A DNA stretch of 64,000 nucleotides from an uncultured Candidatus Saccharibacteria bacterium. GTDB lineage: Bacteria; Patescibacteriota; Minisyncoccia; Minisyncoccales; Staskawiczbacteraceae. The stretch is from contig CAYZNK010000001.1 of the NCBI GenBank assembly GCA_964479955.1, positions 77,073-141,072 on the forward strand, in the 5' to 3' direction. Positions 3,351 through 63,105 of this stretch are shown here, one piece after another. The notes under the pieces are model-generated. The model was not told the DNA's origin. It did no database searches and saw only the letters and a program-made list of their open reading frames with translations. Numbering within the stretch: the stretch's first letter is position 1; each line of letters starts with the position of its first letter. The position numbers and the translations under genes are program-made.

Positions 3351-4358
3351 TTAAATAAGCTGTTTTTTTATATGAAACAAATCTAAATGTTCATATGCAA
3401 GCCTGGATGCAATTCTTCCCCTGGGAGTTCTTTCTATAAATCCGCACTGCATTAAATAAGGTTCATAAATATCCAAAATTGTGTCTTCCTCTTCCATTGC
3501 GGCGGCTGATAAAGATTGCAATCCAACCGGGCCTCCATTGAATTTTTCAATAAGCGCTGTCAGAATTTTTCTATCTCCAGACTCAAGTCCCATTCTGTCT
3601 ATTTCCAAAAAATCTAGGGCATTTTCAGAAATTTCTTTTGTTATTATTCCTGTTCCATTAACCTCCGCAAAATCTCTCACTCTTCTTAAGAGCCTATTGG
3701 CAACCCTTGGTGTAAAGCGCGACCTTTTGGCAATTGAATTTAATGCATCATTTTCTATTTTTGTTCCCAAAATATCCGCTGACCTTTGGATGATTTTTTC
3801 TATATCCAACAAATTATAAAAATTAAGTTGAAAAGTTGCCCCAAATCTGTTTCTTAATGGGGCAGATAAAAGCCCAGGTCTTGTTGTTGCTCCGATAATA
3901 GTGAATCGAGGTAATTTTAATTCCATTGTCCTCGCCATGGGCCCTTTTCCTAAAATAAGGTTTAGCTTATAGTCTTCCATTGCAGGATAGAGATATTCTT
4001 CAACGGTGTTGCTTATCCTGTGAATTTCATCTAAGAACAAAACATCTCCTTCATTTAAATTAGTTAAAATAGCAGCTAAATCCCCGGCCCTTTCAATAGC
4101 GGGGCCCGAGGTAATCCTTATATCCTTTCCCATTTCAAGAGCAACCAGGTGAGCCAATGTGGTTTTTCCCAAACCCGAGTTTCCATAAAATAATAAATGG
4201 TCTGGAGCTTGACCTCTTTGTTTTGCGGCAGTGATAATTATTTTTATATTTTCCTTAATTTTTTCCTGGCCAACATAATCAGACCAATTTTTTGGTCTTA
4301 AGGCAAAATCTAGGCTTTCCTCTTCGGGTGTTAATTTTTGCGAGTTAGGTCTTGACAC
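3351..4358 (-). CDS. ruvB: Holliday junction branch migration helicase RuvB
   Basis: AAA+ Walker [12 protein letters not shown], Walker B LFLDEIHR, and the RuvB C-terminal winged-helix region; 335 aa. Confidence 0.95.
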
Positions 4359-4414
4359 AAGTATTTTAAGGTGATATAATTTATATTATACAAATAATTT
4401 GGTATTTTAGAAAG

Positions 4415-4552
4415 AAAACGGCTCTGGAGTTGGAGGTAATATTTTGGATTTGTTTCAGTTTATGGATAACTTTGCTCTGGCTCAGTTATTCCTCAAACAA
4501 ATCTTTGTTTATGTCCCAGACATAAAACTACCTCCAACTCCAGAGCCGTTTT
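4415..4552. repeat. Long inverted repeat / extended hairpin between pilB-like gene and ruvB (24-bp perfect arms, 90-nt structured spacer)
   Basis: aaaacggctctggagttggaggta (4415-4438) is the exact reverse complement of 4529-4552. The spacer holds further nested pairings (gatttgttt/aaacaaatc; tttatgtc/gacataaa). T-runs flank it on both strands. Confidence 0.8.
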
Positions 4553-4572
4553 TTGCAAAAAGAAAGATGTTT

Positions 4573-5925
4573 TTAAACTTCAGATTTTGAATTTTCAAAA
4601 AACTCATCTTCTTCTACCATTCTCCTAACTTCATCTAAGGTTGTTTTCCCTTCTGCTACATCCAGTAGTCCTGACTGGTACATTGTCACCATACCCTTTT
4701 TAATTGCCAAATCCCTAATTGATGAAACTGGCGGGTTTGTCAGAATAAACTTTTCCATTTCAGAGTCAACCAAAAATGCTTCAAATAATCCCTGCCTACC
4801 CTTAAAGCCAGTAAAATTGCAGGTCTCACAGCCTTCTTTTTTAATTCTTGCAATCTTGATTTTGTCTAAGTTTGGCAGTTTTATTTTTGATTTTAAAGAC
4901 AAAGATTTTAATCCTTTTTTAATTTCAGCCAATTCTTCTGGTTTAGGATTTTCCAGAGCAGAGCATTTTTTGCAAACTTTTCTTACCAGCCTTTGAGCAA
5001 CGGCCATCTTCAAAGCGGGCGCTATTGAAGAAGATTCTGCCCCCAAATCAACAAGCCTTGGTATTGTTCCGGCCGCATCATTTGTGTGCAAAGTTGAAAG
5101 CACTAGGTGTCCGGTTAAAGCCGCCTGCAAGGAGATTTTTGCGGTTTCCAAATCCCTAATTTCTCCAACCAGAATAACATCCGGATCTTGTCTTACAATA
5201 GACTTTAAGCCGTCGGCAAAAGTATATCCTTTTTCGGGGGCAATCTGTGTTTGAGAGATTCCTTTTAAATGATATTCAATCGGATCTTCAATAGTGATAA
5301 TTTTGACTTCCGGGTTTTGTATTTTTTTTAAAAAAGCATACAGCGTTGTTGTTTTTCCAGATCCAGTGGGGCCTGTAACAATTATCATTCCATTGGGTTT
5401 TTGAATTTCTTTTTGAAAAATTTTATATAAGTCTTCTCTTAAACCAAGGCTGCTCAAATCAATCAAATTTTTGGGATTTAATATTCTTAAAACAATTGAT
5501 TCTCCGTATTCAGCCGGCAAACTGGAAGTCCTTATTTCAACCAATGTCTCGTTAACTTCAATCGAAAACCTGCCATCTTGGGGCTTGTCTGTTATATTTA
5601 ATTTTAGTTTTGAAAGAAGTTTTATTCTTGAAAGAAGGCTGCGGTAAATATTTTGTTCAAAAAAAACAACATCTTGTAAGATGCCGTCTAATCTAATTCT
5701 AAGCTTGGCTTGGTCCTCTTGGGGCTCTATATGGATGTCAGAAGCATCAAGCTCTATTGAGCCAAAAAGAATCATGTCCACAAGTTCTGTGGTGCTTTTT
5801 GAAATTGTTTTTTCAATTATATTTTTAAGGCCACCAATATTCTTGGCCGATTTTTTGAATTCTTCAATGGTCTGACCGGAGATGGACACAGAGCCTAATA
5901 TTTTTTTTGTGGAATCATCTGGCAT
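4573..5925 (-). CDS. Type II/IV secretion system ATPase (GspE/PilB family)
   Basis: Walker A GPTGSGKTTT, Asp box, Walker B ILVGEIRD, His box LVLSTLHTNDA, and a C-terminal tetracysteine CxxC...CxxC motif. Confidence 0.88.
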   Translation of the reverse strand: MPDDSTKKILGSVSISGQTIEEFKKSAKNIGGLKNIIEKTISKSTTELVDMILFGSIELDASDIHIEPQEDQAKLRIRLDGILQDVVFFEQNIYRSLLSRIKLLSKLKLNITDKPQDGRFSIEVNETLVEIRTSSLPAEYGESIVLRILNPKNLIDLSSLGLREDLYKIFQKEIQKPNGMIIVTGPTGSGKTTTLYAFLKKIQNPEVKIITIEDPIEYHLKGISQTQIAPEKGYTFADGLKSIVRQDPDVILVGEIRDLETAKISLQAALTGHLVLSTLHTNDAAGTIPRLVDLGAESSSIAPALKMAVAQRLVRKVCKKCSALENPKPEELAEIKKGLKSLSLKSKIKLPNLDKIKIARIKKEGCETCNFTGFKGRQGLFEAFLVDSEMEKFILTNPPVSSIRDLAIKKGMVTMYQSGLLDVAEGKTTLDEVRRMVEEDEFFENSKSEV

Positions 5926-26159: not shown

Positions 26160-26173
26160 ATTATGTTTTTTAG

Positions 26174-26518
26174 TGGAAGTGGGGATGTTGAAATCCCGTC
26201 TGAAAAATTTTTTAAAATAATTCTACAAGTTTAGTTAATTTTGTTGTTCGGGCATTAAATAAAAAATTAACAAAATTTTTAATGCCTTATCTTCTTAATT
26301 TCAGCTGCTTTCCGAAGACTAAAGCAGCCCATCCTAATAATATAACACCTTTATCCGTTTATTAGGAGTCAACGGAAAAGATGCGGCATTAAGCGTATGC
26401 TAACGCCGGTTGCTTATTGAATAAATTAGCAATTATGTTTTTCTCAGAAGATTAATGAGCTGTGAGAAAGCTCAACCTGCCTTATTTTAAAGAACGATCC
26501 ATCGAAACATTCACTCCC
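26174..26518 (-). ncRNA. ssrA: tmRNA (SsrA), about 345 nt
   Basis: Minus-strand 5' GGGAGUG pairs with 3' CACUUCC, giving the G3-U alanine identity pair, then discriminator A. T-arm-like GGGAU-UUCAAC-AUCCC. UUCGAUGG near the 5' end. Internal tag frame GCU AAU UUA UUC AAU AAG CAA CCG GCG UUA GCA UAC GCU UAA = ANLFNKQPALAYA* (26430->26389). Directly downstream of smpB. Confidence 0.82.
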
Positions 26519-26969
26519 GTGATAATTCCCGGTTAACCTCCCGGCTAATGTCTCTTTTTTTAATTTTCTCTTTTTTATCGTATTTTTTCTTTCCCTTAGC
26601 TAATCCAAATTCAAGTTTTATTCTACCACTTTTATCATAAACTTTCAAGGGTATGAGGGAAAATCCCTTTTGTTTGGCTTTTCCTGTAAGCTCGTTTATT
26701 TCCTTTTTATTTAAGAGCAATTTTCTTAATCTTTCTTCGTTATAGCCGGCTCCCGCGTTATTTGGCTGGTATGGGGGTATTTTTACTCCTACTAAATAGA
26801 GCTCGCTGTCTTTTAAGGAAACATAGGACCCTGACAGATTTATACGTCCTGTTCTGATTGATTTTACCTCCTGTCCAAACAAAACAATCCCGGCTTCAAA
26901 CTTGTCCAGAATATTATAGTCGTAATAACCCTTCTTGTTCTCTGAATAGATTTTAGACATAACAAACAT
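26511..26969 (-). CDS. smpB: SsrA-binding protein SmpB
   Basis: YDYNILDKFEAGIVLFGQEVKSIR...LYLVGVKIPPY and a basic C-terminal tail. An alternative ATG lies at 26960. Confidence 0.93.
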   Translation of the reverse strand: MFVMSKIYSENKKGYYDYNILDKFEAGIVLFGQEVKSIRTGRINLSGSYVSLKDSELYLVGVKIPPYQPNNAGAGYNEERLRKLLLNKKEINELTGKAKQKGFSLIPLKVYDKSGRIKLEFGLAKGKKKYDKKEKIKKRDISREVNRELSRE

Positions 26970-39365: not shown

Positions 39366-40820
39366 ATGTTTAGAAAAAACAAAAAATTTTATGTGACTAC
39401 CAGCATACCTTACACAAATGCCTCTCCGCATATTGGTTTTGCTTTGGAAATTATACAGGCCGATGTATTGGCAAGGCATCAGAGGGTCTTGGGAAAAGAA
39501 GTGTTTTTTTTGACCGGTACAGACGAACACGGATTGAAAACATTAAGAGCTGCCAATCTTGCTGGAAAAGAGCCGCTGGAGTTTGCCGACGAAATCTCAG
39601 AAAAATTTAGAGAGCTGGCAAAGGATTTAAATATTTCAAACACTGATTTTATTAGGACAACTGACCAAATAAGGCATATGCCTTCAGTCTATAAATTATG
39701 GAAAAAATTTGAAGAAAACGGGGATATTTATAAAAAAAAGTATAAGGGGTATTATTGTCCTGGGTGCGAAGCATTCAAAACCCAAAAAGAACTTATAGAC
39801 GGAAAATGCTCTTTGCACCAAAAGGATGTTGAAATTGTTGAAGAGGAAAATTATTTTTTTAGACTTTCAAAATATTTGCCAAAAATAAAAAAAATAATTG
39901 CAGAAGAAAAATTAAAAATAATTCCGACAACAAGAAGGGCGGAAATTTTGAATATGATTGACCAAGGACTTGAAGATGTAAGTTTTTCAAGGGCAAAAGA
40001 AAAATACTGGGGATGGCCCGTTCCGGGCGATAATACCCAGAATTTTTATGTTTGGCAAGACGCATTGCCAAATTATATATCAGCTTTGGGATATTCAGAA
40101 GACAGCGAAAATTTTAAAAAATATTGGCCCGCAGATGTTCATTGCATAGGAAAAGATATTGTAAAATTCCATGCAATTTATTGGCCTGCAATGCTATTAT
40201 CAGCTGGGATAAAGCTTCCTGAATTAATTTTTATACACGGGTTTATAAATGTTGCGGGCCAGAAAATGTCCAAGTCCTTGGGAAATGTTGTTGACCCTTT
40301 TGAACTGGTTAAAAAATACGGAGTTGATGCTGTAAGATATTACCTTTTAAGAGAGATTATTCCCACAGAAGACGGAGATTTTACCTATGAGAAATTTGAG
40401 GCAAGATATAATGCTGATTTGGCCGGTGGGCTTGGGAATCTTTTATCAAGAACATTGGGAATAGCCGGCAAAATTTCTAATTTTAAATTTCTAATTTCTA
40501 ATAAATCTTTAAGCAATAATTCAAAAAAAGCCTTAAAGTATACAAAAGAAAAATATGTATTGGCTTTGGAAAATTTTAAATTCAATGAGGCCTTGGCAGC
40601 TGTTTGGGAACTTATAGGATATTGCGACAAATACATAAACGAAGAAAAACTTTGGCAGACAAAAAATCCTAAAGTTATAAACGAAATACTTTTCATATTA
40701 AAAGAGGTTTCGAGTTTGCTGTATCCTTTTTTGCCGGATTCATCAATAAAAATAAACCAAGCAATCAGCGGGGATTCTCTTAAAAAAGAAATTCCTGCTC
40801 TGTTTCCAAGAACGAATTAA
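39366..40820 (+). CDS. metG: Methionine--tRNA ligase
   Basis: YVTTSIPYTNASPHIGF (HIGH variant), zinc knuckle CPGC...C, KMSKSLGN. Confidence 0.94.
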   Translation: MFRKNKKFYVTTSIPYTNASPHIGFALEIIQADVLARHQRVLGKEVFFLTGTDEHGLKTLRAANLAGKEPLEFADEISEKFRELAKDLNISNTDFIRTTDQIRHMPSVYKLWKKFEENGDIYKKKYKGYYCPGCEAFKTQKELIDGKCSLHQKDVEIVEEENYFFRLSKYLPKIKKIIAEEKLKIIPTTRRAEILNMIDQGLEDVSFSRAKEKYWGWPVPGDNTQNFYVWQDALPNYISALGYSEDSENFKKYWPADVHCIGKDIVKFHAIYWPAMLLSAGIKLPELIFIHGFINVAGQKMSKSLGNVVDPFELVKKYGVDAVRYYLLREIIPTEDGDFTYEKFEARYNADLAGGLGNLLSRTLGIAGKISNFKFLISNKSLSNNSKKALKYTKEKYVLALENFKFNEALAAVWELIGYCDKYINEEKLWQTKNPKVINEILFILKEVSSLLYPFLPDSSIKINQAISGDSLKKEIPALFPRTN

Positions 40821-40972
40821 ACATTCCATAAAGGGGATGCTATGTTTTGCAAATTGTTGAAAGTGTTTTTAGGTATATTAAAAACATTTCTTTTGCTAAT
40901 GGGAATTATGCACCCGGAAGAAGAGATTAAAAGCCCTAAATCCAAGGCAAAGGAAGAGTTGGAGAAGAGATG

Positions 40973-41001
40973 TTGACTTTGTTCTTATAATTTGCTATAA
41001 T
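40973..41001 (+). promoter_or_regulatory. Near-consensus sigma70 promoter for csrA (TTGACT - 17 nt - TATAAT with TGC upstream)
   Basis: ttgactttgttcttataatttgctataat. The 16-mer tgctataataaatata is shared exactly with the promoter of the DGR target gene at 48821. Confidence 0.65.
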
Positions 41002-41077
41002 AAATATAGACCCTATTATCTTAAGCCACGACGGCTTAAGGCGTTGGCGAAACGCGTTTCCAGAAGGAGGAAAAAAG

Positions 41078-41299
41078 ATGTTGGTATTATCCCGAAAGAA
41101 AAACGAAAGTATTGTCATCGCAGATGACATTACAATCGTTGTCGTTGAAATCAGGGGTGACAAAGTTCGCCTCGGGGTAGAAGCCCCAAAAGAAGTGCCG
41201 GTGCACCGACGCGAAGTCTTCGACGCTATTCGGCGCAATGAAGCTGCTGCCAACGAAGGCAAGGGAGATATCGCTCAAAAGGGTGATAAGAACGACTAA
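41078..41299 (+). CDS. csrA: Carbon storage regulator CsrA/RsmA (RNA-binding translational regulator)
   Basis: MLVLSRKKNESIVIADDITIVVVEIRGDKVRLGVEAPKEVPVHRREV is a near-canonical CsrA sequence. AGGAGG SD. The gene is visibly GC-richer than its flanks. Confidence 0.93.
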   Translation: MLVLSRKKNESIVIADDITIVVVEIRGDKVRLGVEAPKEVPVHRREVFDAIRRNEAAANEGKGDIAQKGDKND

Positions 41300-41360
41300 G
41301 TTGGGATATCCCAACAAACCAAACCATGGGCAGGAAGCCTTGAGCAGCCTGCCTTTTTAT
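41300..41360 (+). terminator. csrA 3' structures: 16-nt palindrome gttgggatatcccaac, then ggcagg...cctgcc hairpin plus T5
   Basis: Hand-folded. The T-run at 41354-41358 follows the second stem. Confidence 0.65.
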
Positions 41361-41525
41361 TTTGTTCTCAATTATAAAATATATAAAAAAAATAACCCTT
41401 CACCAATTTTAATAATAACCTTGTATTAGAATAAAGGCAGCAGAAGGCGCTTCTCCTTTTAATCCCGACACACTGATAACTATTTTGAAATTGGTGATGA
41501 GGTTATTTTGTGTTAAAATATAGTC

Positions 41526-42350
41526 ATGATTATAATAGATACACACAGTCATTTAAATTTTAAGGCATATGATTTTGATAGAAACGATGTTATAAAAAGA
41601 ACCCAAGAGCAGGGTGTTTTTTGCATTGACGTTGGCACAAAATACGAAACTTCAAAAAGGGCTGTTGAGTTGGCAAAAAATAACGAAAATATATATGCTG
41701 CGATCGGGATGCATCCCATTCATATAAAAACGGATTTGTTGAAAATAAAAATGGACAGCAACGAAGGGGATTTTATGCCGCATGGAGAAGATTTTAATTA
41801 TGAAAACTATAAAAAGCTAGCTCAAAGCAGCAAAAAAGTGGTTGCAATCGGTGAAATAGGTTTGGATTATTATTACAAGCCAAAATCAAAAATAAAATTT
41901 GAAGAATTTAGAAATATCCAAAAACAGGTTTTTATAAAACAGCTGGATTTGGCAGAAGAATTGGGTTTGCCGGTTATTATTCATTGCAGAATGGCGCACA
42001 AAGATGTTATTGAAATTATTAAAGATAGAAAATTGCGCGGAGTTGTACATTGCTTTACCGGGACAACAGAAGAGATGAAGCAATATCTTGCCCTGGGATT
42101 TTACATTGGCATTAACGGAATAGTTTTTAAGCTTGATTTGGATGAGGTTGTAAAACAATGCCCGCTTAATAAAATTTTGACAGAAACAGACTGCCCATAT
42201 CTTACTCCTCCTGCAGAAGGAAAAGACAAGAAGAATGAGCCAATTTTTGTAAAATACATAACCCAAAAAATTGCGGATATTAAAAAATTGGATTTTGAGG
42301 AGGTAGCTGATGCAACTCTTAAAAACGCAAAAGAATTATTTAATATTTAA
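41526..42350 (+). CDS. tatD: TatD family metal-dependent hydrolase/DNase
   Basis: IIDTHSHLNF, GEIGLDYYY, IIHCR, VHCFTG, ETDCPYL. Confidence 0.9.
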   Translation: MIIIDTHSHLNFKAYDFDRNDVIKRTQEQGVFCIDVGTKYETSKRAVELAKNNENIYAAIGMHPIHIKTDLLKIKMDSNEGDFMPHGEDFNYENYKKLAQSSKKVVAIGEIGLDYYYKPKSKIKFEEFRNIQKQVFIKQLDLAEELGLPVIIHCRMAHKDVIEIIKDRKLRGVVHCFTGTTEEMKQYLALGFYIGINGIVFKLDLDEVVKQCPLNKILTETDCPYLTPPAEGKDKKNEPIFVKYITQKIADIKKLDFEEVADATLKNAKELFNI

Positions 42351-48890: not shown

Positions 48891-49511
48891 ATGACTAATT
48901 CAGTCACGACCCAGTCCACCATCACCAATGGTCAGATCGGACAGATCAATGACCGTCTCGCTACCAAGTTGCGCGAGTCAGGCTTGCCCGCGGAGGTGGT
49001 GCAAATCGTCCTGTCCACTCCTGGTGGTAAGGTTATCGACGAGATGGTTATTGCACTCCGTCGCCGAGTGGAGGCCATCAGTAAGATGGTCGTCCGCCGC
49101 GTGAAGGTGAACCGCACTCGCACGCCGCAAGGGGCTATCCATGCCACCGGGCGTACCGAGTACCTTAACGACGAGGTGGTGAACAGCATGCCTCATAGCA
49201 CGCAAGAGGAAGTGGAGGTTTGCTTCTTCCCGCTCGAGAAGTTCACCGGCGTCGCCGATGTGCAGAAGATGCTCGAAGATCATGGCCTTGAGCCCGACCC
49301 CTACGCCTTGGCGGCTGTCAACGAAGAGGATCCATCTTTCGCCGACATTTATCCCAACAATACCCAGTGGGCGGACAGCAACGGCAATCGCTGCTTTCTC
49401 GCCTTCGGCAGGTTCGGCGGCGGGCGCAAGGTGTACTGCTACCGTAGTGAGGACGGCTGGCGTGGCAGCTGGTGGATCGGCGGCGTCCGCAAGCAATCTT
49501 CGGGCGCTTGA
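48891..49511 (+). CDS. DGR target (variable) protein, 206 aa, GC-rich, no signal peptide or TM; C-terminal variable region
   Basis: The last ~35 codons are the VR copy of the downstream template repeat. ATG start, strong terminator 48 nt after the stop. No named domain recognised in the N-terminal 165 aa. Confidence 0.85.
   Translation: MTNSVTTQSTITNGQIGQINDRLATKLRESGLPAEVVQIVLSTPGGKVIDEMVIALRRRVEAISKMVVRRVKVNRTRTPQGAIHATGRTEYLNDEVVNSMPHSTQEEVEVCFFPLEKFTGVADVQKMLEDHGLEPDPYALAAVNEEDPSFADIYPNNTQWADSNGNRCFLAFGRFGGGRKVYCYRSEDGWRGSWWIGGVRKQSSGA
49390..49494 (+). repeat. DGR variable repeat (VR), 105 bp, with invariant GC-rich 3' end (IMH-like ctggtggatcggcggcgtccgcaa)
   Basis: Aligns without gaps to 49851-49955 (offset 461). 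19 mismatches by hand count, all where the TR copy has A. Confidence 0.9.
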
Positions 49512-49558
49512 CACCCTGGACTCTCGGTTCTTTCGTTTCGTTTTGGTCCCTTGGACAA

Positions 49559-49597
49559 AGCCCCGTTTCGCGTAAGCGAAGCGGGGCTGATTTTTTT
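49559..49597 (+). terminator. Strong intrinsic terminator / VR-flanking hairpin (13-bp stem, GTAA tetraloop, T7)
   Basis: agccccgtttcgc-gtaa-gcgaagcggggct followed by gattttttt. Confidence 0.8.
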
Positions 49598-49850
49598 ACT
49601 AAAGAATGTTATTATATATTCAGATAATAGGCTAATATGTCCGCGGCTAAGGCTTCGGGCGGCCGAATTCCGAAATCAGATAAAGCGCGGAGTTCTGAAG
49701 GCTAAGGCTGACAGAAGAGTCGCTCCTGATTTCTAAAAAATGAAGATTGCTTGGTGCAAAGCGCTATCGCATTAAAGATGCGGAATTAGATACAGCCTTG
49801 ATATCGCGAAAGCTTCGATGGGCAGTGGTAAGGGGGGCGCTTTGCATGAT

Positions 49851-49955
49851 GCTGCTATCTCACCTTCAACAGGTTCAACGACAAGCGCAAGGTGAACTGC
49901 AACCGTAATGAGAACGACTGGAATGACAACTGGTGGATCGGCGGCGTCCGCAAAC
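49851..49955 (+). repeat. DGR template repeat (TR), 105 bp, rich in AAC/AAT codons in the target reading frame
   Basis: In the target frame it reads CYLTFNRFNDKRKVNCNRNENDWNDNWWIGGVRK. It carries an adenine at all 19 positions that differ from VR. Confidence 0.9.
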
Positions 49956-49965
49956 CATTTCATTT

Positions 49966-49984
49966 CCCGCCTAAGGCGGGTTTT
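49966..49984. terminator. Hairpin cccgcc-taa-ggcggg plus TTTT, immediately 3' of TR and abutting the avd stop codon
   Basis: 6-bp GC stem at 49966-49980 and a T-run at 49981-49984 on the plus strand. The avd stop (TAA) is the complement of 49983-49985. Confidence 0.6.
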
Positions 49985-50312
49985 ACTTTACTGCTTTAAT
50001 CCAACCCCCAAGCATCCTTCCGATTTCATTTGTTTTCTCAGAGATTAGAATATATCTCTTGTTATCAAGGCTTTTAATCTCCCATGCGATTTGTAAAAAG
50101 AATTTTAATAAATCAAGTTTGGCAGAAGCGTTTTTAAGGCAAACCATCTTCTCTAATCTGTCTGAATTACCCGCTCTAATTGTTAGCTCAATAGTTTCTA
50201 AAAATAATGAATCAATTTTAGTTCCCATCGTATATTTTGAATCCTTAGGGAAGCTTTTCAGAAATCCATACCACGTTTTATAAATTATGACCAGCTTCTG
50301 TATGAGTGTCAA
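49983..50312 (-). CDS. avd: Avd-like DGR accessory protein (four-helix-bundle, 23S rRNA IVS protein family)
   Basis: 109 aa. The pattern ...YGFLKSFPKDSKYTMGTKIDSLFLETIELTIRA...LDLLKFFLQIAWEIKSL...EIGRMLGGWIK matches Avd/PF05635-type proteins. TTG start. Opposite strand to TR and RT. Confidence 0.75.
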   Translation of the reverse strand: MTLIQKLVIIYKTWYGFLKSFPKDSKYTMGTKIDSLFLETIELTIRAGNSDRLEKMVCLKNASAKLDLLKFFLQIAWEIKSLDNKRYILISEKTNEIGRMLGGWIKAVK

Positions 50313-50323
50313 ATTAAAACTGG

Positions 50324-50341
50324 TTTTTTTTTGGGGGGGGG
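50324..50341. repeat. T9G9 homopolymer tract in the divergent avd / RT intergenic region
   Basis: ggtttttttttgggggggggtatt. Lies 11 nt upstream of the avd start (as C9A9 on that strand) and 24 nt upstream of the RT ATG. Confidence 0.9.
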
Positions 50342-50365
50342 TATTAAAGGCCTAAGGCTATTGTC

Positions 50366-51340
50366 ATGAAAAATATTTTTATTCATAAATTTGAAAACAT
50401 CATAAGCGTTGATAATATTCTGGAAGCCTGGCAGGAATTCCTCAAAGGCAAGAAAAACAAGCCTGACGTTCAAGAATTTTCTCTTCGCTTAATGGATAAT
50501 ATTTTTAATTTGCACTACGAATTATTAAATCATATATATAAACACGGAAAATATCAAAAGTTTAAGATAAACGATCCAAAGCCAAGGATAATTCACAAAG
50601 CAAGCGTAAGGGACAGGCTATTGCATCATGCCATATATCGCAAACTGTATCCGTTTTTTGATAAAAAGTTTATATCGGATTCCTATTCCTGCCGGAACAA
50701 TAAAGGAACTCACAAAGCATTAAGCCAATTCAAAAAATATTGTTATGGCGTTTCTAAAAACAACACGAATCAATGCTGGATTTTAAAATGCGACATCAAA
50801 AAATTCTTTGCAAGTATTGACCAGAATATATTGATAAAGATTCTGGATTCCCGCTTTCGCGGGAACGACACTATGTGGTTGCTAAAAGAAATTATTCTCA
50901 GTTTTAAACCAAACGGATTACCCTTGGGAAACCTCACAAGTCAACTCTTTGCAAATGTTTATTTAAACGAATTTGACCAGTTCACAAAACACAAGCTAAA
51001 AGTAAAATACTATGTCAGATACGCAGATGACTTTGTGTTTTTATCTCGAGACAAAAAATATTTGGAAAATTTGATTCTCAAAATACAAAACTTTTTACAA
51101 AACAAATTAAAATTAATACTTCACCCCGACAAAATATTTATTAAAACAATTTACTCTGGAATAGATTTTCTTGGGTGGGTTAACTTCAAAGACCACAGGG
51201 TTTTAAGAACTAAAACAAAACAGAGGATGTTAAACAGGATAAAAAGCGCTCCAAACGCAGAAACTATAAATTCTTATCTGGGGCTTTTAAAACACGGGAA
51301 TAGTGGTAGAATAAAAGAGAATATTTTAAATAAAATTTAA
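50366..51340 (+). CDS. DGR-type reverse transcriptase
   Basis: RT motifs PRIIHKASVRDRLLHH (1), SYSCRNNKGTHKA (2), LKCDIKKFFASID (3), GLPLGNLTSQLFANVYLNEFD (4, the DGR-diagnostic [ILV]GxxxSQ), RYADDFVF (5), HPDK (6), and GIDFLGW (7). At 324 aa there is no maturase or endonuclease domain. Confidence 0.9.
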   Translation: MKNIFIHKFENIISVDNILEAWQEFLKGKKNKPDVQEFSLRLMDNIFNLHYELLNHIYKHGKYQKFKINDPKPRIIHKASVRDRLLHHAIYRKLYPFFDKKFISDSYSCRNNKGTHKALSQFKKYCYGVSKNNTNQCWILKCDIKKFFASIDQNILIKILDSRFRGNDTMWLLKEIILSFKPNGLPLGNLTSQLFANVYLNEFDQFTKHKLKVKYYVRYADDFVFLSRDKKYLENLILKIQNFLQNKLKLILHPDKIFIKTIYSGIDFLGWVNFKDHRVLRTKTKQRMLNRIKSAPNAETINSYLGLLKHGNSGRIKENILNKI

Positions 51341-54640: not shown

Positions 54641-54660
54641 AGAAAGAGAAATAAATGCAG

Positions 54661-54744
54661 TGCCCGAGGTGGGAGTTGAACCCACAATTCCGTAAGGAAA
54701 TGCGATTTTGAGTCGCACGCGTATGCCAATTCCGCCACTCGGGC
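54661..54744 (-). tRNA. tRNA-Leu (anticodon CAA), type II with long variable arm
   Basis: Hand fold: acceptor GCCCGAG/CTCGGGC, discriminator A, anticodon stem TGCGA/TCGCA with loop CT-CAA-AA, long extra arm, T-arm GTGGG-TTCAACT-CCCAC. CCA is not encoded. Confidence 0.88.
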
Positions 54745-62630: not shown

Positions 62631-62824
62631 AAAAACAGTACCTTTTAGAAAGGAGGTGGTCAACATCTGGTTGTTTTTTCTATTCTCTAACAGGAAAGGA
62701 GAACAAAGCAGTCAGAGCACATTGTACTTGCCGTTTTTGGGGAGGGGAATCTTAGCTAACCAAACAGGGCGGAGAAGAGGCACAAGTTCAAACTTGTAAC
62801 AATGGCTCAAAGAAAGGATTTGAC

Positions 62825-63055
62825 ATGTCAGGAACCGTTTGTCACACTGCTCGAAAGTTGAATGCCAGCCAAAGGTCATTTATTCTTTCCCATGTCAATG
62901 GAGGCACGGTCACCACTGACCTCCTCAAAGAGGTCTCCAAAGAATTTGGGAGGAAATTTGGGTGGAAAGTCCACCCAATGGCGATTCGCAAGTTGTGTGG
63001 CACTCGGAGAACAGTTTGGGGGAGGCGTAGACCCAAATTAATGAGGCGCTGCTAG
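62825..63055 (+). CDS. Small basic hypothetical protein (76 aa), possible HTH DNA-binding protein
   Basis: ATG with SD aaagga 6 nt upstream, R/K-rich C-terminus, GC-richer than flanks, and followed by a strong terminator. The HTH guess rests only on the pattern LNASQRSFIL...TTDLLKEVSKEFG...HPMAIRKL. Confidence 0.45.
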   Translation: MSGTVCHTARKLNASQRSFILSHVNGGTVTTDLLKEVSKEFGRKFGWKVHPMAIRKLCGTRRTVWGRRRPKLMRRC

Positions 63056-63070
63056 CCTTTCTTCCTGTAT

Positions 63071-63105
63071 GGGCTGGATAATCAGCTGATTTTCCGGCCC
63101 TTTTT
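63071..63105 (+). terminator. Intrinsic terminator (30-nt hairpin gggctggataatcag/ctgattttccggccc plus T5)
   Basis: Hand-folded stem with two mismatches; T-run at 63101-63105. Confidence 0.7.

Follow-up and report, generated by a model that had tools for sequence, protein, structure and literature searches.

The subject of this analysis is a csrA gene in a stretch of 64,000 nucleotides (hereafter the window, meaning the whole of this stretch) from an uncultured bacterium deposited as Candidatus Saccharibacteria and placed by GTDB in the Staskawiczbacteraceae (assembly GCA_964479955.1, contig CAYZNK010000001.1, positions 77,073 to 141,072). A horizontal origin of this gene is well supported by the sequence comparisons described below, because its composition is foreign, it appears to have been inserted at an ancestral metG-tatD junction, and its nearest relatives belong to the Planctomycetota. 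Taken as a whole, the explanation that we favour, and that we regard as probable, is that csrA forms a functional monocistronic cassette, that this cassette is an old insertion, and that its coding sequence is planctomycete-derived. Confidence is high for the layer of the old insertion and moderate for the derivation of the coding sequence of this sublineage from Thermoguttaceae-like planctomycetes; how recombination took place and in which order the events followed each other are deductions.

The csrA gene and its insertion between metG and tatD

It is virtually certain that csrA is a real gene. As stated in an initial annotation of this DNA, a CsrA protein of 73 residues is encoded alone between metG (39366-40820) and tatD (41526-42350). 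The protein matches the Pfam profile PF02599 with 88.9 bits (E=2.1e-25, cut-off 27), its residues 1-52 being aligned to profile positions 1-52 of 53. Alignment to the solved structures 5DMB, 7YR6 and 1VPZ revealed that the RNA-binding residues L2, L4, R6, V42 and R44 are present, and that the aligned segments MLVLSRK... and ...EVPVHRREV correspond to the RNA-binding regions of strands 1 and 5; the scores obtained with 2JPP and 1Y00 were similar. The CsrA residues that matter were reportedly worked out, in E. coli numbering, by Mercante et al. in 2006. The window protein shares the full PF02599 domain and the expected length with Escherichia coli CsrA (1Y00), Pseudomonas fluorescens RsmE (2JPP) and the CsrA of the Geobacillus CsrA-FliW pair (5DMB), but it is only ~50% identical to any of the solved CsrA proteins. 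All available sequence tests place it in the CsrA/RsmA family and, because of the ~50% identity to solved dimers, it would be expected to form an interdigitated homodimer with five strands and a C-terminal helix per monomer. The neighbours identified with Pfam are metG, tatD, leuS and an AI-2E transporter. No match to the Pfam families of FliW or flagellar proteins was found among these neighbours or among 20 small or medium-sized open reading frames (ORFs) of the window, in agreement with the absence of such genes noted in the initial annotation.

The gene had also been described as lying in a GC-rich patch, and this description held in every test that was run. The patch of 433 bp has a GC content of 0.453, as compared to a mean of 0.345 for the whole window, which places it in the top 1.7% of windows taken along the stretch. 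The coding sequence has a GC content of 0.489 (0.644, 0.329 and 0.493 at the first, second and third codon positions, GC1, GC2 and GC3), while the means of the 57 other ORFs are 0.344 overall and 0.416, 0.310 and 0.308 for the respective positions. When the coding sequence was compared with 20,000 random in-frame segments of 73 codons from the other genes, its GC content was associated with a z-score of 3.6 and was not reached by any of the 20,000 segments; its GC3 of 0.493 compares to 0.302 in these segments (z=3.6, p=6e-4). The application of host codon usage to the CsrA amino-acid sequence gave an expected GC content of 0.402 and an expected GC3 of 0.299 (z=3.8 for GC3). About 40% of the GC excess is attributable to amino-acid composition and the remainder to codon choice. 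The difference in composition between csrA and its host, measured here against the genes of the window, is significant and real.

All named LeuS relatives at 72-74% identity belong to Candidatus Staskawiczbacteria, which are part of the Candidate Phyla Radiation (CPR). For the junction analysis, 70 metagenome loci were retrieved via TatD, and MetG, CsrA, TatD and LeuS were mapped in them by tblastn. Where both metG and tatD were present on a locus without csrA, the two genes were found to abut or overlap in 23 cases (gaps of -8 to +3 nt), as the junction sequences confirmed. These loci are mostly more distant relatives, with a TatD identity of ~55% or less, and they include L091, L149 and L104. 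In eight more csrA-lacking loci the gap measures 47-2162 nt. A csrA gene lies between metG and tatD in most of the closer relatives, namely L087-90, 92-96, 98, 100-102 and 105-108, and also in L160, L162, L161 and L249, which were retrieved by LeuS- or CsrA-based look-ups, giving a total of ~20 loci. The order is csrA-tatD-leuS in L052, the Staskawiczbacteria metagenome-assembled genome (MAG) RIFOXYB1_FULL_37_44. In trees of TatD and of TatD plus LeuS, the csrA-bearing genomes form one clade. Because of the tight empty junctions elsewhere and this one csrA-bearing clade, we consider it very likely that csrA is an insertion common to a subclade of Staskawiczbacteria. Synteny and composition, the uniformity of which throughout the clade had been named in the initial annotation as an indication of vertical inheritance, are thus shared across the subclade but not across the wider clade.

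The initial annotation had regarded csrA as an island gained by horizontal acquisition. The foreign origin stands, but the island is not peculiar to this genome, since ~20 loci carry it at the same site with raised GC3. Accordingly, a recent island that is private to this genome seems highly improbable to us. Such an island would fit with a GC content and GC3 significantly above those of the host, with the planctomycete nature of the closest proteins and DNA, and with incomplete amelioration. However, the homologous cassettes at this junction in the Staskawiczbacteria loci come from independent assemblies, and the synonymous identity among the window, L087 and L088 is 0.60-0.65 for csrA, which matches the 0.63-0.75 observed for housekeeping genes. 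Because the synonymous divergence of csrA resembles housekeeping divergence, the allele would predate the split of these three genomes. What may be comparatively recent is, at most, the allele of the coding sequence in this sublineage.

The metG-tatD junction looks like an insertion hot spot, judged from the different inserts seen in other relatives: an NadD-NadE-like fusion in L118, a B3/4-domain protein in L128, and GC-richer ORFs without assigned function in L099 and L153. In L105, a BadF-type ATPase lies upstream of csrA at this junction. Pfam analysis of the ORFs in the metG-tatD gap of other relatives connected none of them with csrA or mobility. In L052, the GC-rich patch extends over ~1.8 kb and contains, upstream of csrA, an ORF of 432 codons (3476-4774, reverse strand, GC ~0.52), beyond which ftsH takes the place of metG; for the product of this ORF, Pfam likewise gave no match and no link to csrA or mobility. 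The 705 inserted nucleotides of the window contain no integrase or transposase gene, flanking direct repeats not having been searched for.

Planctomycete affinity of the coding sequence

The best named protein matches of the window CsrA belong to Thermoguttaceae and Planctomycetaceae (89-96% identity; e.g. MHB8903233.1), and its residues 1-61 are 100% identical to planctomycete proteins. Of the best 80 GTDB loci (one genome per species), 72 are from Planctomycetota, on contigs of up to 7.5 Mb, 7 are titled CPR (including 2 Peribacteria and 1 Peregrinibacteria) and the last is an unclassified 'bacterium' MAG. The planctomycete genes are chromosomal and lie in a block of conserved synteny, Fer4-DUF2203-csrA-hemH (ferrochelatase)-fusA-rpsG-rpsL-rpoC. 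Those of L001 and L081-L086 encode proteins with 89-96% identity to the window protein, an alanine at position 15 (A15) and a tail of the form AAANEG(K/R), and their DNA is up to 87% identical. At the nucleotide level, the similarity between the window csrA and planctomycete DNA reaches 86.9% over 183 nt and ends at the ends of the coding sequence. The leader of the planctomycete genes (TTGACT-17-TATGCT ... GGGCAAGGAACGATAGG-ATG) is unlike that of the window gene, their GC3 is 0.58-0.75, and a comparable terminator is not present. It should be added that the identity of the core says little about the timing of a transfer, because the 55-residue core is nearly invariant across the Planctomycetota.

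More specific evidence comes from three features. A15 and the tail AAANEG(K/R).D.. are common to the window, L087, L088 and the planctomycete sequences L081-86, L001 and P0003-P0019. The N15A change is derived and takes two nucleotide changes, and the tail is otherwise hypervariable; that of L087 reads NEGRTDIVK and that of L085 NEGRTDVAK. As a third feature, the identity at third codon positions is 60-69% to the A15 planctomycete group versus 33-38% to other same-site CPR alleles. In addition, P0015 (identical to L164) has N15 together with the same tail in its native planctomycete context, which indicates that A15 arose inside the Planctomycetota and that the direction of transfer was from planctomycete to CPR. 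On these grounds, a planctomycete origin of the coding sequence is likely. The A15 allele is also found in a third genomic context, L163 (GC 0.45; phylum unplaced). An exact-sequence look-up of the window CsrA protein gave no contig match.

To determine the direction of later change, L002 and L164 served as outgroups by which the substitutions were polarised. The ratio of GC-to-AT over AT-to-GC changes was 13:2 for the window lineage, 13:4 for L087 and 13:2 for L088, as compared to 1-2:2-4 for planctomycete members. This bias indicates partial amelioration, since a gene imported into an AT-rich genome would be expected to change in this direction.

Several observations weigh against the favoured explanation. 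Firstly, the csrA-less loci L091 and L149 nest in the csrA-bearing clade and have kept the tight metG-tatD junction; this could mean an error of the tree at this point, more than one gain, or a clean loss. Secondly, the insertion is accompanied by neither a mobility gene nor a tRNA, the sole tRNA of the window being located away from it at 54660-54744. Thirdly, a neighbour-joining tree with bootstrap, calculated on the 171-nt core, united the window, L087 and L088 with 81% support, but the union of this clade with the A15 planctomycetes received 40% and CPR monophyly 0%. The origin does not emerge from this tree because the core of 171 nt is too short, and the link between the window and planctomycetes consequently depends mainly on N15A, the tail and a modest synonymous excess. 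Fourthly, the synonymous sites of codons 8-20 are conserved in 78 planctomycete loci (the L001-L086 set), and third positions are for this reason no neutral clocks. These codons read AAG AAC GAG AGT ATT GTC ATC AAC GAT GAC ATT ACG ATC, and they include AT-ending codons in planctomycete genomes of ~60% GC, which suggests a constraint at the RNA level inside the coding sequence. Fifthly, the other same-site Staskawiczbacteria alleles keep a GC3 of 0.40-0.67 in hosts near 0.30, such that one old import would be insufficient and either recurrent unsampled imports or selection for GC would be needed. A nearest-neighbour analysis of these other alleles revealed no specific planctomycete partner, and a database search with the L090 allele gave no protein with its tail. 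A general recurrent import is therefore unproven.

Some of these points would be compatible with vertical inheritance of an old CPR csrA, with the planctomycete similarity reflecting extreme purifying selection and the GC content reflecting amino-acid composition and selection on the mRNA. The core that hardly varies over a whole phylum, the share of the GC excess due to amino-acid composition, the synonymous conservation in codons 8-20 with the RNA-level constraint that it suggests, and the high GC3 kept by all same-site CPR alleles can be read in this way. We nonetheless regard vertical inheritance as very unlikely, since none of the more distant relatives has csrA at the junction, metG lying directly next to tatD in most of them, and since the same CsrA subtype occurs in unrelated contexts of other CPR lineages (L157, with the order DeoC-csrA-csrA-cysS, L163 and Peribacteria). 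Moreover, the solved CsrA proteins of other phyla are only ~50% identical, the derived N15A and the hypervariable tail are common with one planctomycete lineage, and the substitution bias on the CPR branch points towards AT.

A second possibility is that a large phage with this CsrA subtype, and not a planctomycete cell directly, supplied the cassette or the allele. As many as 74 IMG/VR contigs (L165-L238; 27-527 kb, several of 230-530 kb) encode CsrA relatives. The closest of these contigs have a GC content of 0.39-0.64, many share the core (85-93% identity) and have short tails like those of L052 and L105, and some stem from the same metagenomes as CPR loci (3300029288 and 3300037067). Mobile csrA genes are known as well. 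In Legionella, paralogues associated with integrative conjugative elements have likewise moved horizontally as small self-contained units (PMC4471563), and csrA-like genes are annotated in deposited plasmids and phages, as exemplified by plasmid NZ_LN713927.1 of P. fluorescens SBW25 and the 'CsrA-like regulator' of Vibrio phage OZ195765.1. However, the window csrA differs from such mobile copies in that it adjoins no integrase, conjugation or phage genes, occupies a junction of housekeeping genes and is fixed in its clade; the csrA genes of INPHARED phages and PLSDB plasmids show less than 60% identity to it. The best gene on a viral contig reaches 82% nucleotide identity and 53% at third positions, as opposed to 87% and 64% for the A15 planctomycetes; the A15 change and the tail were not seen on viral contigs, and Pfam analysis of the neighbouring genes on the IMG/VR contigs gave no confirmation of their viral nature. 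A phage-mediated transfer is, in our opinion, unlikely.

The short length and high GC content of the patch, together with its high similarity to planctomycetes, would also be expected if a planctomycete fragment had been joined chimerically into a CPR contig during assembly or binning. This explanation was considered and rejected, its probability being negligible: the planctomycete homology stops at the ends of the coding sequence, the AT-rich CPR-specific flanks are conserved in independent assemblies (JGI, ENA, Logan and NCBI), and the gene has accumulated 13-17 lineage-specific substitutions.

Under the favoured explanation of an old cassette with a planctomycete-derived coding sequence, the ancestor of the Staskawiczbacteria subclade would have received a cassette of ~0.5-0.7 kb between contiguous or overlapping metG and tatD genes. 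This cassette would have held csrA between a promoter, a hairpin-bearing leader (5' hairpin) and a strong Shine-Dalgarno (SD) sequence on one side and an intrinsic terminator on the other. Of these parts, promoter, leader hairpin and terminator would then have been inherited vertically within the clade. The coding sequence is of the CsrA subtype found throughout the Planctomycetota (Pirellulales and Thermoguttaceae) as a chromosomal gene in conserved synteny, and the allele of the window genome and its nearest relatives would come from a Thermoguttaceae-like lineage. A later replacement of the coding sequence alone, anchored in the near-invariant 5' part of the gene, is proposed as the likely route because the flanks have stayed of the CPR type; we give this particular step about an even chance of being correct. 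The imported allele would at present be ameliorating towards the AT-rich composition of its host.

Other Patescibacteria (L157 5001-5844, L021 5001-5849 and L018) carry two tandem csrA genes in a DeoC-csrA-csrA-cysS context, and these resemble the two csrA paralogues of planctomycetes. The second csrA of L021 encodes a protein of 148 residues with two CsrA domains in a single chain.

The csrA transcription unit and its conservation

The observations support the view that csrA is a canonical transcription unit with its own promoter and terminator (Table 1). The promoter proposed in the initial annotation was recovered, and in a consensus scan it was the top-scoring site in the region of 39-43 kb. 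However, the window holds 10 sites scoring at least 11/12 where 4.4 are expected, and the csrA promoter alone is thus not exceptional. With a predicted transcription start site near 41008, the leader would measure 70 nt, and its minimum free energy (MFE) fold contains three hairpins. The folding energy of the whole leader is ordinary (z=-1.0), so that the earlier description of a structured leader applies to the 5' hairpin, which is conserved and covaries, but not to the leader in its entirety. The stem of 8 bp predicted for that hairpin was found, while its loop comprises 5 nt instead of 4. The palindrome of 12 nt and the AGGAGGA motif were both present as annotated, the first GGA of the latter falling in the loop of the SD hairpin. 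A double-hairpin terminator had been proposed as well, and it is indeed seen: the terminator region folds with -24.2 kcal/mol (z=-2.95), and its stem is followed by the U-run UUUUUAUUUU. A simple terminator scan missed this structure because the stem is interrupted and the loop is long. In a permissive Rfam search of 40700-41600, no known leader or riboswitch was detected, all E-values being larger than 1.

Table 1. Features of the metG-tatD interval, in window coordinates.
Feature	Position	Strand	Basis
Inserted segment, metG stop to tatD start, 705 nt	40821-41525	+	Junction mapping in 70 loci
Candidate ORF for a small membrane protein of 44 aa	40842-40976	+	Reading frame and length kept in relatives
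Sigma-70-type promoter: TTGACT (40973-40978), 17-nt spacer, TATAAT (40996-41001), extended -10 TG (40993-40994)	40973-41001	+	11/12 consensus match
Leader hairpin 1: 8-bp stem, arms cttaagcc (41020-27) and ggcttaag (41033-40), loop ACGAC	41020-41040	+	MFE fold, covariation
Leader hairpin 2: GCGUU-GGCGA-AACGC; overlaps 12-nt palindrome gaaacgcgtttc (41049-41060)	41041-41055	+	MFE and centroid fold
SD hairpin: UUUCC-AGAAGGA-GGAAA; SD AGGAGGA (41065-41071)	41057-41073	+	MFE fold
csrA coding sequence, 73 aa	41078-41299	+	Pfam PF02599, structure alignments, planctomycete protein identity
First 3'UTR (untranslated region) hairpin: GUUGGG-AUAU-CCCAAC, perfect 6 bp	41300-41315	+	Fold
Intrinsic terminator: stem GGGCAGG...CCUGCCU (41328-41354), then UUUUUAUUUUG	41328-41365	+	Fold

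The same layout recurs in the orthologous cassettes. TTGAC(T/A)-17-TATAAT is located at the matching position and the 5' end is conserved, being TAGCTCTTT in most; the SD sequence AAGGAG(G), the 5' hairpin, the first 3' hairpin and the terminator also recur. In an alignment of 12 orthologues, 7 of the 8 base pairs of hairpin 1 change on both sides; 80% of the cells are paired, as compared to 19-62% when the partner is slid, and none of 500 shuffles reached the covariation score. The loop of this hairpin follows the pattern A-N-G-A in the orthologues, with ACGAC in the window and AGGA in L106, L092, L052 and L095. Hairpin 2 was found only in the sublineage of the window, L087 and L088. Placement of the SD in a loop, or its pairing with an anti-SD sequence, is similar in L087, L088, L101, L105, L092 and L089. 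At the 3' side, hairpins resembling gttgg..ccaac occupy the position of the first 3'UTR hairpin in L087, L088, L090, L093 and L098. A total of 11 Staskawiczbacteria loci share a terminator built as GCAGGA(A/T)GC...CCTGC-T-run, which the 3' flanks of the planctomycete genes do not have.

Two loci hold a divergent CsrA (45-48% identity) at the metG-tatD site, namely L095 (857-1066) and L096 (1422-1619), and exchange or strong divergence of the coding part of the cassette is thus evidently possible. Promoter and 5' hairpin are laid out in these two cassettes as in the other orthologues, and the loop of the 5' hairpin of L095, UAUGGAUGA, is close to the CsrA consensus from SELEX (systematic evolution of ligands by exponential enrichment).

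The product of the 44-codon ORF upstream of csrA, hydrophobic at its N-terminus and charged at its C-terminus, is possibly a small membrane protein, and the ORF may be part of the islet. This ORF overlaps the -35 box of csrA and is preceded by AAGGGGA. Its frame and length are kept in L087 (3425-3553), L088 (166-297) and L249 (2767-2901), where it is an annotated gene, and ORFs resembling it in architecture occur in L090 and L101; its product has no Pfam match.

Other features of the window were recorded in passing. A diversity-generating retroelement (DGR) at 48891-51340 comprises a target ORF (48891-49511), a variable repeat (49390-49497) that is 81% identical to the template repeat (49851-49958), a bAvd gene (49983-50312, reverse strand) and a reverse transcriptase gene (50366-51340). 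With a GC content of 0.59 and a GC3 of 0.74, the target ORF is the strongest compositional outlier of the window; its product has no Pfam match. At the corresponding site, L160 and L162 pass directly from Sua5 to SHMT. An intergenic GC-rich patch (GC up to 0.47-0.50) is present at ~62668-63100 between pth and lepB, and it contains no ORF and no Rfam match even at a permissive threshold. Lastly, a tmRNA gene (102.5 bits) adjoins smpB (26171-26518 and 26511-26969, both on the reverse strand).

CsrA in a genome poor in Shine-Dalgarno sequences

An SD-like match of at least 4 nt at -22 to -4 was found for 8 of the 58 window ORFs, leaving ~85% of the genes without an SD, and 34 of the 58 have no GGA within -45 to +12 of the start, the first ATG having been taken as the start codon, which may be wrong in a few cases. 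The genome thus appears to be largely SD-independent. Among these ORFs, csrA has the strongest SD (AAGGAGG, 7 nt). The number of GGA motifs near start codons was tried as a predictor of CsrA targets and found to be uninformative, as most genes have none. Translation of tatD may proceed without a leader: TGTTAAAAT, an extended -10 element in 41511-41528, ends 6 nt before the ATG of tatD, which predicts a leaderless mRNA. The same arrangement, TGTTAAAAT-N6-ATG, is found at tatD in L092 and L160, and L088 has GGTTAAAAT-N6-ATG.

By analogy with the family, the CsrA homodimer would bind GGA motifs in mRNA leaders and thereby block ribosome access. The AGGAGGA SD of csrA, placed in a hairpin loop, would be the most obvious candidate binding site and would lead to negative translational autoregulation. 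A GGA-rich SD in its own leader is a property that the window gene has in common with E. coli csrA, which reportedly autoregulates, as Yakhnin et al. are said to have described in 2011. Because few window ORFs have an SD or GGA motif and the SD of csrA is the strongest, the csrA mRNA itself is the clearest candidate target, and we judge autoregulation at this SD, for which the leader sequence is suggestive, to be as probable as its opposite. The regulon is probably small, because neither an SD nor a GGA is present close to the start codon of most host genes. It has been reported from metatranscriptomes that csrA is among the highly expressed genes of ultra-small groundwater prokaryotes (PMC9938205), which fits with the strong promoter and SD of the window csrA.

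In comparison with classical Csr systems, the host is largely devoid of SD sequences, and a regulon that is based on SD occlusion must therefore be small or different. Csr/Rsm systems employ sponge RNAs such as CsrB and RsmZ, whereas no GGA-rich RNA of this kind was found in the 64-kb window: in a sliding GGA count the most GGA-dense segments of 250 nt all lie inside coding regions, and Rfam detected no member of the CsrB/Rsm families. Unlike in the FliW-CsrA module, no fliW was found next to csrA or among the scanned ORFs. The CsrA described here is a canonical, horizontally derived member of its family and, as a regulator, ordinary; it does not represent a novel type of system.

The acquisition of single regulator genes by Patescibacteria is not without precedent, as horizontal gene transfer of lysR from Omnitrophota has been described (PMC12455944). 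In both cases, a single regulator gene has passed from another phylum into an ultra-small bacterium. The main text of that study does not contain the term 'Planctomycet-' and its donor table does not list Planctomycetota, and we found no report in the literature that was searched of a csrA link between planctomycetes and Staskawiczbacteria. Planctomycetota are one of the CsrA-rich phyla (PMC13443453). As compared to the lysR case, the insertion site, the ancestral state and a donor-like lineage can all be named for csrA.

It is conceivable that the sharing of csrA alleles reflects a physical association of Staskawiczbacteria, as episymbionts, with Thermoguttaceae-like hosts, and a repeated flow of DNA from host to CPR bacterium. 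The planctomycete-like copies of both csrA paralogues in L157 and L021, and the independent occurrence of the subtype in other CPR lineages, can be cited for this idea. The CPR and planctomycete alleles come from similar series of sample projects, and no common sample was found among them. If such an association exists, the RNA-binding core identical to that of the host may have been kept because CsrA acts on host-derived or host-like RNAs; alternatively, the cassette could be an autoregulated unit, complete in itself, within a translation system that otherwise does without SD sequences. Overall, we consider an episymbiotic association to be quite unlikely as the explanation of the shared alleles.

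The csrA of the window represents an unusually well-documented case of transfer across phyla into a CPR genome, in which the steps are visible from the sequence: an empty site, an insertion, a conserved frame of the cassette, a donor-like lineage and directional amelioration. For the biology of these bacteria, a GGA- and SD-binding repressor that is under strong purifying selection in an SD-poor genome, where, within the window, only the csrA mRNA clearly bears an SD, poses the puzzle of what CsrA regulates. Lastly, hosts are known for only a minority of Parcubacteria, and a specific and possibly repeated DNA link of this kind would make Thermoguttaceae-like planctomycetes a candidate partner.

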